Positions 59,111-63,729 of a stretch of DNA of 64,000 nucleotides are shown here, piece by piece; the stretch's first letter is position 1; each line of letters begins with the position of its first letter. Made by a program: the position numbers and the translations under genes. The notes below the pieces were generated by a model. The model saw nothing but the letters and a program-made list of their open reading frames with translations. It did no database searches and was not told the DNA's origin. Location of the stretch: NCBI GenBank assembly GCA_025361565.1, contig JANYKN010000004.1, forward strand, positions 2,012-66,011, read 5' to 3'. Origin of the DNA: Bacteroidota bacterium (lineage in GTDB: Bacteria; Bacteroidota; Bacteroidia; Bacteroidales; NBLH01).

Positions 59111-59228
59111 TTTTAGTCTGATAAATGATTGAATTGATGTTTGCTTGCAATATTAACCATATTTTTTTGAATAGTATAAATTTGACAAGGAATGGATTTA
59201 ATAAAGTAGAACTATATCATGTGCCGCG

Positions 59229-59436
59229 ATGGCGCAAGCTTTTAGCCTCGGCTGGCGCGAGCTTGTAGCTCGTGCCACTTCAAATACAAATAATCCATAA
59301 ATTTATTATCTTTGTTTTGATGAGCCAAAATTATAAAACTGAAAATATATTAGCATTGCTTATTTTACAGGATCTCGTGGAATTATTGAAATTAATGAGA
59401 TTTGATAGATGGGCACGAGTTACAAACTCGCGCCAG
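59229..59436 (+). mobile_element. Mini-RAYT unit I: tandem left REPs + RAYT 5' leader and first ~10 codons fused to the last ~20 codons + right REP
   Basis: There is a degenerate REP at 59229-59250 and a REP, GCTGGCGCGAGCTTGTAGCTCGTGCCAC, at 59251-59278. The relic ATG is at 59320 and the relic stop at 59403-59405. The right REP, GGGCACGAGTTACAAACTCGCGCCAG, is at 59411-59436. Positions 59320-59436 differ at only 2 positions from 62736-62852. Confidence 0.75.
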
Positions 59437-59515
59437 ATTGGAGTTTGAGTGGATTATAAAAATAATCGAATTGGAGAAACAAGTAAACGATTTAAAAACA
59501 AAAAAATAAGTAGAT

Positions 59516-60235
59516 ATGAAAAAAATACTATTAATATGCGGCTTATTTTCTGTTACAGTCAATTTGTTTGCACAGTTTGAATATAACAGCCAAGGAAATA
59601 TAGTCCCATTCTCATTAAGTGACAAATATAAAGACATAATAGATACTTCAAAGGTAAATACATGCATGCTGCCTTCCTATAACAATGATTCATTGTATTG
59701 GGAAGCTAATTTTGAAGCAATGTATATTAAAAGAAAAGATATTGGTCTTAAAGTTGGTTTTCCTCTCGACACTTTGATTGATTTTAAAAAGCAAGCCAAT
59801 AAATATAGAATACAAGGAGGTACTTTGTGGCTTTATAAAATTGAGAGCAAAACAGCAAAAAGTATAAGTATAATATATAAAGACTTTGAAATTCCTGAAG
59901 GAGGGATCTTCTCAGTTTATCCTTCAAATTCGAAGTTGCAGGATAATGAGCGCAGAGTATACGATAAAAATGCGTGGGGAAAAATTAAAATTCATTTTTG
60001 GAATTTGGTAATTGGAAACAATATGTATATTGAATATTTCGAACCTGATCAATCCAATTGCAAACCTGAGATAATAATTAGTAAAATTATTTATGGGTAT
60101 TACGATAAAAAAAAAAGTGGACTAGAGACGCTCCCGAATCACTTAAAAAAAAATATCCCAACTTCAATTTTGAAAGAGAGTGCATTAGAAAATAAGTGCA
60201 AGTACTTTTTTTGCAATAAATGGAATAATTTATAA
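59516..60235 (+). CDS. Secreted hypothetical protein; resembles the N-terminal pro-region of Bacteroidota lysyl-endopeptidase-like S1 proteases, with the catalytic domain absent (possible gene fragment)
   Basis: 239 aa with a signal peptide. The pattern LPSYNNDSL...GGTLWLYKIESKTAKSISIIYKDFEIPEGGIFSVYP...MYIEYFEP...IISKIIYGY matches my recollection of that pro-domain. The ORF ends 33 nt before a REP block. Confidence 0.4.
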   Translation: MKKILLICGLFSVTVNLFAQFEYNSQGNIVPFSLSDKYKDIIDTSKVNTCMLPSYNNDSLYWEANFEAMYIKRKDIGLKVGFPLDTLIDFKKQANKYRIQGGTLWLYKIESKTAKSISIIYKDFEIPEGGIFSVYPSNSKLQDNERRVYDKNAWGKIKIHFWNLVIGNNMYIEYFEPDQSNCKPEIIISKIIYGYYDKKKSGLETLPNHLKKNIPTSILKESALENKCKYFFCNKWNNL

Positions 60236-60267
60236 ATAGATATTTTCGAAATGCGAAGTTAATCCAT

Positions 60268-60375
60268 CGCTGATGCAAGCTTGTAGCTCATCTCGCTGGC
60301 GCGAGTTTGTAACTTATGCCACCTCTGAAACAATGAATCCATAAATTTATTATCTTTGTTTTGATGAGCAGAAAA
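60268..60375 (+). repeat. Solo REP/RAYT left end (unit II): degenerate REP + REP + RAYT 5' leader with a truncated start
   Basis: There is a degenerate REP at 60268-60293 and a REP, CGCTGGCGCGAGTTTGTAACTTATGCCAC, at 60294-60322. The leader CTCTGAAACAATGAATCCATAAATTTATTATCTTTGTTTTGATGAGC is nearly identical to 62023-62069. Confidence 0.7.
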
Positions 60376-60450
60376 ATCTAATTTCCAAAACGAATAAAGC
60401 TTTTTCTTTATTCTTGCTGTAATTAGACTTTAATATAGTAAAACCTTAAA

Positions 60451-61890
60451 ATGCAGCAGTTAGATAAACTCTCCATTAAAACCAATATTGTAAATTTATC
60501 CCTTTTTTTTATATTTTTTACACTGCTCACATGGTTTGTTTCCGATCAAATTTTCTTTTGGGATACCATACAACTCGGAGCAAAACATGGTCTCTTTTTT
60601 TATGAAAATAATTTTTCATCCATACTATTACCAGATAATATCGATAGCGGACATATTCCTACTTTTGGAATGTATTTGGCCATTTGCTGGAAAATATTCG
60701 GTAAATCTTTGTTGGTAAGTCATTTTGCCATTTTGCCTTTTTTGCTGGGGATTGTATGGCAAGCCTATATTTTATTGAAAAAATATATCAATCCAAAATA
60801 TATCTATTTTGCGTTAACGCTCTTTCTTGCCGATGCTACTTTTTTAAGCCAAGCCACTTTAATCAGCCCCGATGTTGTGTTGGTTTTTCTGTTTTTGCTT
60901 GGTTTAAATGCAGTACTAAGGAACAAAAAAGTATTGGTTTCAATAGCTTGTGCAGGGCTTGTTTTAATCAGTATGCGCGGCATGATGGTTGCGTTTTCCT
61001 TATTAATTTTAGACATTATCCTAAATGTAAAGTTTGACGATTTTAAGTCTGTATTTTTTCAATTGGTAAAAAAGACAATTGTTTATTTTCCTGCTTTTAT
61101 TGTTTTCACAAGCTATTATTTATATCATTATTACTCAAAGGGCTGGATAGCTTACCATGCAGATTCTCCATGGGAACAGAGTTTTCAATTGGTTGATTTT
61201 AGTGGTTTTATTTTTAACACAGGAATTCTTGGTTGGCGGATATTGGATTTTGGACGTGTTTTTCTTTGGTTGTTTTCAGGTATTATCACGATTAAATATT
61301 TTAAGAATCTGATACATGACAAAAAACTGATACAAATCCTTTTCATTTTTATTATAGTATTAATCTGTTTATCAGTAAGTTTTGTATTATATCAAGGCTT
61401 AAGCGGACATCGTTATTTATTGCCGGTTTATCTTATTTTTTCATTATTTACCTGTTATCTTGTTTTTGAAAAGCTGAAAGTTGAAAGATTGAAATATATC
61501 ATTTTTTCGATATTACTTGTTGGTTCGTTGACTGGGAATTTGTGGATTTACCCCGAAAAAATAGCCATGGGATGGGATTCGACTTTGGCTCATTTACCTT
61601 ATTACCATTTACGAAAACAAATGCTTGATTATTTGAATGAAAACAAGATTAAAACTGGTGATGTTGGTTGTGATTTCCCGAACCTTTCGGAACAAAAGTA
61701 TATGGAGCTAAATGACGATTTGCAAAAGCATCACGAAAAAAACTTAGATACAGACAAATATGTTTTATACTCCAATGTTTATAATGGCTTTAGCGATAAT
61801 GAAATTGACAGACTAAAAACTGATTTTATACTTTTAAAAGAGTACAAACAGTTTGGGGTATTTATGAGGATTTATAAAAGGAAAATATGA
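60451..61890 (+). CDS. GT-C fold glycosyltransferase, family 39/83-like (ArnT/PMT_2-like)
   Basis: 479 aa with about 12 TM helices. The first periplasmic loop, DSGHIPTFGMYLAICWKIFGKS, resembles the ArnT-like GHPPL segment. Confidence 0.55.
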   Translation: MQQLDKLSIKTNIVNLSLFFIFFTLLTWFVSDQIFFWDTIQLGAKHGLFFYENNFSSILLPDNIDSGHIPTFGMYLAICWKIFGKSLLVSHFAILPFLLGIVWQAYILLKKYINPKYIYFALTLFLADATFLSQATLISPDVVLVFLFLLGLNAVLRNKKVLVSIACAGLVLISMRGMMVAFSLLILDIILNVKFDDFKSVFFQLVKKTIVYFPAFIVFTSYYLYHYYSKGWIAYHADSPWEQSFQLVDFSGFIFNTGILGWRILDFGRVFLWLFSGIITIKYFKNLIHDKKLIQILFIFIIVLICLSVSFVLYQGLSGHRYLLPVYLIFSLFTCYLVFEKLKVERLKYIIFSILLVGSLTGNLWIYPEKIAMGWDSTLAHLPYYHLRKQMLDYLNENKIKTGDVGCDFPNLSEQKYMELNDDLQKHHEKNLDTDKYVLYSNVYNGFSDNEIDRLKTDFILLKEYKQFGVFMRIYKRKI

Positions 61891-61892
61891 AT

Positions 61893-61981
61893 GGGCACGA
61901 GCTAGAAACTCGCGCCAGCTGGGGCATTTCATGCACAATGCCTCAACCGCCCCGCTGGCGCAAGCTTGTAGCTCGTGCCAC
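61893..61981. repeat. REPIN-like inverted REP doublet (R4/R5) with a 30-nt spacer
   Basis: GGGCACGAGCTAGAAACTCGCGCCAGC is at 61893-61919 and CCCCGCTGGCGCAAGCTTGTAGCTCGTGCCAC at 61950-61981. R4 starts 2 nt after the stop of the 60451-61890 gene. Confidence 0.8.
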
Positions 61982-61990
61982 TTCAAATAC

Positions 61991-62022
61991 TCCCGCTGGA
62001 GCGAGTTTGTAACTCGTGCCAC
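61991..62022. repeat. REP (R6), left flank of the RAYT gene
   Basis: TCCCGCTGGAGCGAGTTTGTAACTCGTGCCAC; an imperfect palindrome with a 3-nt loop. Confidence 0.8.
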
Positions 62023-62063
62023 CTCTAAAACAATGAATCTATAAATTTATTATCTTTGCTTTG

Positions 62064-62609
62064 ATGAGCCAAAAATACAAATTCCACAACAAAGAAGGAT
62101 TATACTTTATCAGCTTTGCCACTGTCTATTGGATAGATGTTTTTGTGCGGGATATTTATTTTGCAGTTATAACAGACAGTTTGGAATTTTGTAGGAAAAA
62201 CAAGGGAATGGAATTGTTTGCCTATTGCATATTGCCAAGCCATGTTCATTTAATCTTTCGCGATAGGAACAATGATCCGGGTAAATTAATTAAGGAACTG
62301 AAAACCTATACTTCAAAGAAAATGCAGGAAATAATATCAGAAAATATGCAGGAAAGTAGACGGGAATGGATACTTTGGATGATGGAGCGTGCCGGATTAA
62401 AAAACAGCAATGTCAAGAGCAAACAATTTTGGCAACAAAGCAATCATCCAATTGAGTTGTGGGGAAGCAAAGCAATTCAACAGAAATTAGAATACATTCA
62501 TAATAATCCTGTTGAAGCAGGTTTTGTAACTGAGCCACATCATTGGAAATACAGCAGTGCGGCTAATTTTTCTGGATCAGCTGGGATTATTGAAATTGAT
62601 GAGATTTGA
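62064..62609 (+). CDS. REP-associated tyrosine transposase (RAYT; IS200/IS605-like Y1 HUH transposase)
   Basis: 181 aa from the ATG at 62064 (the track start at 62061 is a TTG). It has the HUH motif LPSHVHLI, YFISFATVYWIDVF, FWQQSNH and KLEYIHNNPVEAGF, and is flanked by inverted REPs. Confidence 0.85.
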   Translation: MSQKYKFHNKEGLYFISFATVYWIDVFVRDIYFAVITDSLEFCRKNKGMELFAYCILPSHVHLIFRDRNNDPGKLIKELKTYTSKKMQEIISENMQESRREWILWMMERAGLKNSNVKSKQFWQQSNHPIELWGSKAIQQKLEYIHNNPVEAGFVTEPHHWKYSSAANFSGSAGIIEIDEI

Positions 62610-62614
62610 GGGAT

Positions 62615-62694
62615 GGGCACGAGCTATAAGCTCGCACCAGCTTTGGGGAAAAAAATTGATTTCCCCGCTTGCGCGAGCTTGTAGCTCGTGCCAC
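62615..62694. repeat. REPIN-like inverted REP doublet (R7/R8) with a GGGGAAA..TTTCCCC spacer
   Basis: GGGCACGAGCTATAAGCTCGCACCAGC is at 62615-62641 and CCCCGCTTGCGCGAGCTTGTAGCTCGTGCCAC at 62663-62694. Confidence 0.8.
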
Positions 62695-62853
62695 TTCAAA
62701 TACAGATAATCTATTAATTGACTATCTTTGTTTTGATGAGCCAAAATTATAAAACTGAAAATATAGTAGCATTGCTTATTTTACAGGATCTCGTGGAATT
62801 ATTGAAATTGATGAGATTTGATAGATGGGCACGAGTTACAAACTCGCGCCAGC
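62663..62853 (+). mobile_element. Mini-RAYT unit IV (twin of 59251-59436)
   Basis: The left REP is at 62663-62694, the relic ATG at 62736, the relic stop at 62819-62821 and the right REP at 62827-62853. Track ORF 62718-62936 is a read-through artefact of this element. Confidence 0.75.
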
Positions 62854-62871
62854 ATGTAGCCAGCAACGAGC

Positions 62872-63729
62872 TTAATCAAACCGCTGCTTATACCTGCATT
62901 TCATGCACAATGCCTCAACTGCTCGGTGGTTGGTAAATCCTTCGTAAATAGCCCTGGATCTTTCGTTTTTGATTATCTCAATAAAACTTTGTTCAAAAAT
63001 ATTCCCCAATTTAGTAATCCCTTCACCATCCAAGCAGCAGGGAACCACAGTTCCATCGGCCAGGATCGCAATCTGTTCGCGTAACGCATAACAGAAACCT
63101 TTTTCGTTGTGGTAATTGCTATTCATATCAGGCCACTCAAATTCATAGTCCGTATTTAAATAGAGATGTTCCCGTATTTTTAACCCTTTGCCTGTTATCA
63201 GGTTTTCTTCCAGTTTGTTATCGCCATAAAATTGGGTTTCGATGGCATTAAGTATAATTTTGTTTTTTTCGTTTGCCGATTCGTCTTCTTTGTTGAAGTT
63301 CCACAAACGCAATGCAATGATCATGTTGGTTTTTTCCAGCGCTTCATGCGCAAAATCAAGAATATCGGTCAGATAATTCACTTTATTGTTTTCGGTAAAA
63401 CTATGCAGCGAAAAATTGATTTGCCTGATTGCCGGTTTGTTAAGGAATTCTTCTTTTACTTTGTTTATCAACACGCCATTGGTGGTGATGTTTACCTTTA
63501 AATTAAATTCATATGCCATATCCAGAAATTCGTTGATTTGCGGATGGAGTAGGGGTTCTCCTTTTACATGGAGGTAAATATGATCGGTATAGGGTTTTAC
63601 TTCGTTCAGGATATGACGGAAAGATTCTTTTGTGAGCGTTTTGGGCTTTAATATGCTTTTATAGCAAAAGCTGCAGCTGAGGTTGCAGATGTTTGTGATT
63701 TCGATATATAATTTTTTAAATTTTTTCAT
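62872..63729 (-). CDS. Radical SAM protein with C-terminal Cys-rich (SPASM/twitch-like) region
   Basis: The start is trimmed to MKKFKKLYIEITNICNLSCSFC (CX3CX2C). The C-terminal region has CYAL...VPCCLDGEG...ALCMKC. The track start at 63774 runs into an upstream palindromic element. Confidence 0.8.
   Translation of the reverse strand: MKKFKKLYIEITNICNLSCSFCYKSILKPKTLTKESFRHILNEVKPYTDHIYLHVKGEPLLHPQINEFLDMAYEFNLKVNITTNGVLINKVKEEFLNKPAIRQINFSLHSFTENNKVNYLTDILDFAHEALEKTNMIIALRLWNFNKEDESANEKNKIILNAIETQFYGDNKLEENLITGKGLKIREHLYLNTDYEFEWPDMNSNYHNEKGFCYALREQIAILADGTVVPCCLDGEGITKLGNIFEQSFIEIIKNERSRAIYEGFTNHRAVEALCMKCRYKQRFD

Follow-up and report, generated by a model that had tools for sequence, protein, structure and literature searches.

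Two local copies of an internally deleted RAYT relic framed by REP hairpins in a Bacteroidota bacterium

Introduction

The ends of IS200/IS605 elements are recognized on a single strand. PATEs are deletion derivatives of these elements, and both PATEs and MITEs are defined by the presence of many dispersed copies.

For RAYT genes, Bertels and Rainey describe a single-copy character and an inability to self-mobilize, and in their proposal, REPINs originated from REPs located on either side of an IS200-like ancestor (PMC3116915). In the survey by Bertels et al. (2017), 7.7% of RAYTs were accompanied by a duplicate sharing at least 95% identity, and RAYT Group 5 was found to evolve slowly and vertically (PMC5581495). 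Quentin et al. report no evidence of class 2 gene mobility (PMC6006769). No mention of truncated or relic RAYT copies was found in the REP/RAYT papers that we searched.

The locus examined herein is located in a 64,000-nucleotide stretch of DNA from a Bacteroidota bacterium (assembly GCA_025361565.1, contig JANYKN010000004.1, positions 2,012-66,011 of the forward strand), which we call the window. The locus resembles other REP/RAYT systems in that a Y1 HUH protein of ~180 amino acids is encoded between inverted REPs, extra REPs cluster beside the gene, and the same REP motif is dispersed in related genomes. Unlike described RAYTs, the intact gene is accompanied by three decayed copies of the RAYT unit, including one that was duplicated after it had lost its interior. 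Within the 64 kb available, REPs were found in the array only.

The duplicated relic shares features with two further types of element. Like PATEs and MITEs of the IS200/IS605 type, it has lost its interior, here the transposase, while keeping both hairpin ends of the parent, and a related Y1 transposase could, in principle, use the resulting unit of ~190 nucleotides as a substrate. However, such elements occur as many dispersed copies, whereas we found two local ones, 3.4 kb apart in a single REP array, on searching the window and public collections. In addition, the relic ends are inverted REPs, as found around RAYT genes (Nunvar 2010), unlike IS200/IS605 ends. The resemblance to REPINs is that the two inverted REPs of the relic can pair as one long hairpin (-36.9 kcal/mol, z = -5.9), and canonical short-spacer R-L doublets are present in the array at 61888-61990 and 62611-62698. 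Unlike a REPIN, the relic has a spacer of ~130 nucleotides made of RAYT remains, carries its REPs in the gene-bracketing order L...R rather than R-L, and is represented by two copies rather than by a replicating population. Thus, the relic adds a case to a known class, that of transposase relics with retained ends, and it lacks the dispersed copies by which a MITE is defined.

Results and Discussion

An Intact RAYT Gene of the Bacteroidetes Type

The final 5 kb of the window contain an intact RAYT gene that codes for a protein of 181 amino acids. The protein matches the Pfam family Y1_Tnp (E = 1.4e-7) and is placed in the RAYT clade by NCBIfam model NF047646 (93.5 bits; cutoff 80), while its score of 22 bits with the IS200 model falls short of the cutoff of 55. 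Its translation carries the HVH, WQ, and YIHNNP motifs, and the gene is flanked by inverted REPs whose hairpins fold, the left of which spans 61991-62025. Judged by length and motifs, the protein fits TnpA_REP subclass 2.6, or RAYT Group 5, which is the Bacteroidetes type (PMC6006769).

Relatives of the resident RAYT number in the thousands. Among the best 120, to which our identity values are restricted, the proteins are 64-79% identical to the resident protein, and nearly all are exactly 181 amino acids long. Their hosts are Pontibacter, Pedobacter, Flavobacterium, Bacteroidales MAGs, and similar organisms, and many are named RayT. The nearest RAYT in any collection shares 79% protein identity, and the nearest whose DNA was compared (L002) shares 78%. 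A RAYT that is 52% identical to the resident protein is present in Bibersteinia trehalosi.

A REP Array with Four RAYT-Derived Units

The RAYT gene is part of an array of four units in the same orientation, each located between L-type and R-type REP hairpins (Table 1). These are, in order, relic A, a 5'-only relic fused to a gene for a 479-amino-acid protein, the intact RAYT, and relic B. When the REPs are included, the array reads (L')L-relic A-R and then a lipoprotein gene, (L')L-5' relic-479-aa gene-R, L L-RAYT-R, and L-relic B-R.

The REP itself is a hairpin repeat of ~30 nucleotides. Nine strong and two degenerate copies were identified by nhmmer and pattern searches, all within 59.2-62.9 kb, and the same searches returned none in the remaining 59 kb of the window. 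Eight occurrences of a REP 26-mer with three or fewer mismatches, and four of a 26-mer covering the leader and ATG, are present in the window, against an expectation of zero in both cases. L-type and R-type REPs alternate strictly along the array, all in the orientation of the RAYT, and the subtype is strictly tied to position: L-type REPs (ending in ...GCTCGTGCCAC, with the GTGCCAC end) precede RAYT 5' ends, and R-type REPs (ATGGGCACGAG..., with the ATGGGCAC end) are found just past RAYT 3' ends. Every REP folds as single-stranded DNA (-7 to -12 kcal/mol). The hairpins are strand-asymmetric, with a G.T pair on one strand becoming an A/C mismatch on the other. Two stem variants occur, GAGCT...AGCTC and GAGTT...AACTC, which differ by a compensatory change from C-G to T-A, and the copy at 61894 is a mismatched intermediate.

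The REP motif of the array is also found at 118 or more loci in Capnocytophaga, Pontibacter, Hymenobacter, Rufibacter, and others. There is no RAYT within 8 kb at 89 of the 118, and REPs of this family therefore do disperse in other Bacteroidota. A near-identical 25-nucleotide REP core is common to distant genera, including Sphingobacterium and Bacteroidales MAGs (loci L082-L199). It is unusual for a REP to be conserved to this degree across genera, and the RAYT family itself likewise evolves very slowly. A single match to the REP motif (L131) is on a contig binned as Comamonadaceae.

Table 1. Features of the REP array, with positions in the window
Feature	Position	Strand	Evidence
Degenerate, shortened extra left-type REP (GCGCAAGC variant) touching relic A	59228..59246	+	nhmmer REP profile E = 0.08; 88% identical to 61949-61972
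L-type REP hairpin, relic A, ends ...GCTCGTGCCAC	59247..59282	+	nhmmer E = 5e-11; ssDNA hairpin -11.7 kcal/mol, z = -4.6
RAYT leader, relic A; TATCTTTG just upstream of ATG	59283..59319	+	34-nt tract 59292-59325 = 60336-60369
5' coding remnant, relic A (ATGAGCCAAAATTATAAAAC, ~6-7 codons)	59320..59339	+	Same sequence in relic B
3' coding remnant, relic A: 22 codons and original TGA stop, out of frame with ATG; Trp codon now TGA	59340..59405	+	Alignment to RAYT 3' end, tblastn
R-type REP, relic A (ATGGGCACGAGTTACAAACTCGCGCCAG)	59407..59442	+	nhmmer E = 6.5e-11
Degenerate L REP and L REP, third unit	60266..60325	+	Repeat search, nhmmer
Leader and ~48 nt of RAYT 5' coding sequence, third (5'-only) relic	60326..60411	+	87% identical to resident RAYT 5' region; 479-aa gene next
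R-type REP immediately 3' of the 479-aa gene stop	61888..61923	+	nhmmer E = 3.5e-11
Solo L REP and 12 nt of relic-type leader	61950..61990	+	39/41 match to relic B left end (95%); 28-nt exact tract
L REP (GAGTTTGTAACTC variant) and leader of intact RAYT	61991..62063	+	REP and leader pattern matches, nhmmer
Intact RAYT, 181 aa	62064..62609	+	Pfam, NCBIfam, motifs
R-type REP of intact RAYT	62611..62645	+	Pattern match, nhmmer
L-type REP of relic B, 17 nt past the R REP of the RAYT	62663..62698	+	Pattern match, nhmmer, alignment
Leader of relic B; 5 differences from relic A	62699..62735	+	Alignment
Mini coding sequence, relic B: 20 nt 5' and 66 nt 3'; junction as in relic A	62736..62821	+	Alignment, tblastn
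R-type REP, relic B; same as that of relic A except for the last base	62823..62857	+	Alignment, nhmmer

Two Copies of a Unit That Lost Its Interior

A first-pass annotation of the window had described two near-identical RAYT relics framed by REPs, and our alignments agree. Relic A (59247-59442) and relic B (62663-62857) are units of ~190 nucleotides that are separated by 3.4 kb, and both are located no more than 3.6 kb from the intact RAYT. A repeat search of the window paired 59251-59443 with 62667-62859 at 94% identity over 193 nucleotides, and a gapless alignment of 59247-59437 with 62663-62853 reveals 11 differences in 191 nucleotides. Three of these fall in the outermost part of the left REP, five are in the leader, two are in the 3' coding remnant, and one is the last base, with none in the 5' coding remnant. 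The right REPs had been called identical, which holds except for the last base.

Each relic is composed of an L REP, a leader of ~37-40 nucleotides, 20 nucleotides of RAYT 5' coding sequence, 66 nucleotides of RAYT 3' coding sequence that still end in the original stop, and an R REP. Approximately 460 nucleotides of the RAYT interior are absent. The first-pass annotation had allotted ~10 codons to the 5' piece, which is too many: only ~20 nucleotides (6-7 codons) are retained, and the TGAAAAT that follows already belongs to the 3' piece, where the intact gene reads TGGAAATAC and TGA has taken the place of the Trp codon. The 3' piece does retain the stop and is out of frame with the start, as had been stated, but it holds 22 codons instead of ~20.

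The 3' pieces (59340-59405 and 62756-62821) are homologous to the final 66 nucleotides of the intact gene (62544-62609). For relic B, 52 of the 66 positions are identical to the resident gene, and the repeat search gives 77-80% over 98 nucleotides. A tblastn search of the window recovered both relic ends, with 80% and 70% identity over 20 amino acids. Similarity is highest next to the right REP, where 26 of the last 27 nucleotides match the resident gene, compared with only 26 of the preceding 39; the former value could reflect a functional right end. On sequence grounds, relics A and B are noncoding, internally deleted RAYT remnants that are still framed by REPs, and no separate function is evident for them.

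Relics A and B share one deletion junction, which establishes that copying came after the deletion, just as the first-pass annotation had argued. The similarity between the two relics stops at the outer edges of the REPs, where the flanks become unrelated, and the large membrane proteins encoded nearby (507 and 479 amino acids) are not paralogues of each other. The pair is therefore not part of a larger segmental duplication with homologous flanks, and we reject this explanation.

Another conceivable origin for the second copy is an error of assembly. The source is a 288-kb metagenome-type contig, and REP clusters are hard to assemble, such that repeat collapse or chimeric joining at REPs might have generated a spurious copy. 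However, there are 11 differences between the two relics, and the flanks of each are unique. Furthermore, independent Logan contigs (SRR23617162) are exact substrings at 59407-60365 and 60340-62700, these contigs were seen in nine samples, and both relic ORFs are recorded on two contigs. These exact contigs and repeated ORF records make an artefact unlikely, and we give this explanation almost no weight.

The Relic Is a Paralogue of the Resident RAYT

A different RAYT lineage had been suggested as the source of the relic. We find instead that the relic 3' end, which is identical to the resident gene at 52 of 66 positions, matches 12 other RAYTs at only 35-44 of 66 (one frameshifted gene was excluded). 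In addition, the relic and the resident RAYT begin with ATG-AGC-CAA (Met-Ser-Gln). This start is unique to the resident gene among the 42 family members compared, and Met-Ser-Arg is used by 40 of the other 41. The closest 3' end and the common Met-Ser-Gln start argue that the relic is a decayed old paralogue of the resident RAYT, and a foreign origin is rejected on the same evidence.

Rearrangement and Exchange within the Array

A third relic, which is not in the first-pass annotation, is present at 60291-60411. This 5'-only relic includes a doubled L REP, a leader, and ~48 nucleotides of 5' coding sequence that run into the gene for the 479-amino-acid membrane protein. The latter has no Pfam or NCBIfam match, and its stop codon abuts an R REP. 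The segment from 60266 to 61923 resembles a RAYT unit in which a passenger gene has taken the place of the body or become fused to it. A search with a wobble-tolerant pattern for the 479-amino-acid gene returned only relatives of 41-45% identity, with no REP or RAYT nearby.

Relative to the resident unit, the 5' region of the third relic is 87% identical, and those of relics A and B are 82-83% identical. Relics A and B share 91% identity over the 5' region and 94% over the whole unit. These three grades of 5' identity indicate several rounds of local duplication followed by decay.

Other traces of rearrangement surround the intact RAYT unit. It is bracketed by a 41-nucleotide direct repeat (39 of 41 positions identical) that consists of an L REP plus 12 nucleotides of relic-type leader, at 61950-61990 and 62663-62703. 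Moreover, 24 nucleotides of 3'-terminal sequence from a convergent radical-SAM/SPASM gene (62897-62920, coding for VEALCMKC) recur exactly at 61924-61947, between an R REP and an L REP and ~1 kb upstream of the original. This copy implies that a rearrangement duplicated flanking DNA adjacent to a REP. Together, the four-unit array, the direct repeat, and the 24-nucleotide copy point to repeated rearrangement at REPs.

The differences between relics A and B are unevenly distributed, with eight in the left 60 nucleotides and three in the right 131 (Fisher P = 0.005). The first-pass annotation had likewise noted that the left leaders are more diverged, and this is explained best by a conversion tract shared with the third relic. 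Specifically, relic A and the third relic, although ~1 kb apart, are identical over 34 nucleotides (59292-59325 and 60336-60369), and this tract contains four of the eight core A/B differences (binomial P about 0.03). The tract and the uneven differences indicate gene conversion between units. On this reading, the tract shows that homology-driven exchange operates in the array, and such exchange could also have made the second copy of the relic.

We consider the chances about even that a decaying RAYT paralogue was copied once, locally, by gene conversion or recombination, and we judge MITE-style transposition less likely. In this scenario, an old paralogous copy of the resident RAYT would have lost ~460 nucleotides of its interior, such that only the REP-adjacent parts remained: the left REP, leader, and 20 nucleotides on one side, and 66 nucleotides and the right REP on the other. 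The deletion derivative would later have been copied once, from REP edge to REP edge, to a site 3.4 kb away within the array. Copying would have proceeded through homology-driven exchange between REP-bounded units, with the shared REP and leader serving as arms. We infer this mechanism from the anatomy, the junction, the flanks, the local distribution, and the conversion-like tract that are observed. Three considerations weigh against recombination. Ends at REP edges and unrelated flanks are equally expected of RAYT-catalyzed excision and insertion; conversion requires that an L...R pair was already present at the recipient site, which is plausible in this array; and the relic keeps exactly those parts that a Y1 transposase needs.

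The 34-nucleotide tract also bears on an explanation that we find improbable, in which functional constraint keeps relics A and B alike. The relics would be promoter cassettes or structured RNAs, with relic A and the third relic providing a RAYT-derived promoter for the downstream same-strand genes at 59516 and 60451. The sequence TATCTTTG, found 5 nucleotides upstream of the RAYT ATG (59308-59322, 60352-60366, and 62052-62066), resembles the Bacteroidetes -7 promoter box. If this putative assignment is correct, it would imply that the RAYT mRNA is leaderless or nearly so, and relic A and the third relic could donate a putative promoter to the genes downstream. In keeping with this possibility, relic A and the third relic are located ~80 and ~40 nucleotides, respectively, upstream of same-strand genes, and their leaders are identical over the 34 nucleotides that include the TATCTTTG box. 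Relic B, which points toward the 3' end of a convergent gene, has four changes in this tract, upstream of the box. However, the best conservation between relics A and B is in the dead coding remnant and the right REP, not in the promoter, and the right REP hairpin stands between the putative promoter of relic A and the gene downstream. There is no match to an Rfam family, only spurious hairpin matches far below threshold, and the relic ORFs have no homologues outside the source contig in 5.8 billion protein clusters.

Searches for Additional Copies

The first-pass annotation had attributed MITE-like behavior to the relic. This claim is not sustained by our searches, which recovered the two local copies only. 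No further copies were detected elsewhere in the 64-kb window by pattern search, tblastn, or nhmmer. An exact 31-mer across the deletion junction is absent from 185,579 GTDB species genomes, a relic-specific 24-mer is absent from JGI metagenomes, and a comparison of the relic ORF peptide with the 5.8 billion protein clusters gave no match beyond the two ORFs of the source contig itself. Exact queries with these two ORFs yielded no contigs. The flanking proteins have no homologues in the 200 RAYT/REP loci compared, and there is no synteny at related loci. More relic copies may be present in the source genome beyond the 64 kb examined.

Mini-RAYTs in Other Genomes

Comparable deletion derivatives were identified in other Bacteroidota. 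Pedobacter sp. MW01-1-1 (NZ_CP179926.1, 676551-687093) carries two mini-RAYTs that are 96% identical and have unrelated flanks. This unit consists of a left REP, a leader, 130 nucleotides of 3' coding sequence, and a right REP, and its junction occurs twice in the complete genome, both times at the RAYT locus. Alongside this pair are two full-length RAYTs of 97% identity in a duplicated segment of ~1.2 kb, whose copies are ~2.5 kb apart and each carry a different in-frame stop codon. Further fragments of a RAYT 3' end plus REP are also present at this locus.

In Tenacibaculum sp. M341 (locus L081, 4160-5600), two tandem mini-RAYT units of 352 nucleotides directly precede an intact RAYT. Here, the unit includes a left REP, a leader, ~50 nucleotides of 5' coding sequence, and a right REP. 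The spacer between units is duplicated as well, which indicates tandem duplication and not transposition. Marivirga atlantica carries one REP-framed relic that has several deletions and is more than 8 kb from any RAYT, and a junction scan found this single copy. More broadly, extra RAYT pieces within 5 kb were found at ~12 of 80 RAYT loci, all but one on the same strand. Decay of RAYT loci has therefore yielded mini-RAYTs repeatedly in this phylum, with one or two local copies in every case checked.

Local Copying versus Transposition

The relics of Pedobacter, Tenacibaculum, and Marivirga, being likewise few and local, favor local copying for relics A and B. A tentative alternative is that the mini-RAYT is a nonautonomous element, similar to a PATE or MITE or to a REPIN with a long spacer, that was moved in trans by the neighboring RAYT. 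The RAYT would have cut at the L and R REP hairpins, excised or copied the unit as single-stranded DNA, and inserted it beside another REP (local hopping). Several features of the locus would be expected from such events. Homology ends at the outer REP edges between unrelated flanks, both parental ends are retained, and the intact cognate RAYT is only 54 nucleotides away. Each relic copy adjoins another REP, which is consistent with REP-targeted insertion, and the strand asymmetry of the REP hairpins is expected for recognition of single-stranded DNA. The whole unit can also fold as the REPIN-like long hairpin noted above.

The same REP motif is dispersed in many Bacteroidota, mostly at loci with no RAYT within 8 kb, and Pedobacter provides an independent REP-bounded mini-RAYT pair with unrelated flanks. 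Transposition would also accord with the origin of REPINs proposed by Bertels and Rainey (PMC3116915). However, neither Pedobacter nor Marivirga, the genomes tested, exhibits amplification, and in Tenacibaculum the copies are in tandem and their spacer is duplicated too. In the window, both copies are part of the RAYT-proximal array, with no copy in the remaining 59 kb. Gene conversion, for which there is evidence here, provides a sufficient alternative. The literature likewise reports no evidence for mobility of class 2 (RAYT) genes (PMC6006769; PMC2817692).

A bolder extension, which we regard as unlikely, is that the whole L-REP/gene/R-REP unit of Bacteroidetes-type RAYTs is still copying itself to nearby REP-marked sites, or did so recently, and that mini-RAYTs are mobilized in trans. 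The relics would then represent a REPIN-like element at birth, with RAYT remains as the spacer, and would be the intermediate predicted by the hypothesis that REPINs come from an IS200-like ancestor. The present evidence is compatible with ordinary local duplication and decay.

The window and the loci of Pedobacter, Tenacibaculum, and Marivirga reveal that RAYT loci of the Bacteroidetes type often comprise arrays in which intact, truncated, and internally deleted units share one orientation. The recurrence of such arrays indicates that the REP-gene-REP unit has been duplicated repeatedly, at least locally. In contrast, RAYTs have been regarded as domesticated, single-copy, and immobile genes, with only REPs and REPINs being mobile. 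If some of the duplications were catalyzed by RAYTs, mini-RAYTs would be the step missing between an IS200-like ancestor and REPINs. If recombination produced the duplications, which we judge more likely, these loci would be REP-rich recombination hotspots that gather RAYT pseudogenes. Either way, a 190-nucleotide unit with defined left and right ends, located beside its cognate enzyme, is a testable substrate for RAYT activity.

Additional Observations on RAYT Decay and Mosaicism

The conserved HWKYSS motif has lost its Trp codon to a stop (TGA, TGA, and TAG) in three independent relic lineages. The sites are 59340-59342 and 62756-62758 in the window, ~3959 and 9127 in the Pedobacter sp. MW01-1-1 locus (L009), and ~4826 on the minus strand of locus L188. 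This recurrence is probably due to the high nonsense-mutability of TGG. Finally, Flavobacterium pygoscelis (locus L036, 5001-5590 and 9475-10194) carries two RAYTs whose proteins are 62% and 41% identical to the resident protein. The ends of these two genes are 96-97% identical to each other while their middles are divergent, a pattern that suggests mosaic recombination between RAYT paralogues.
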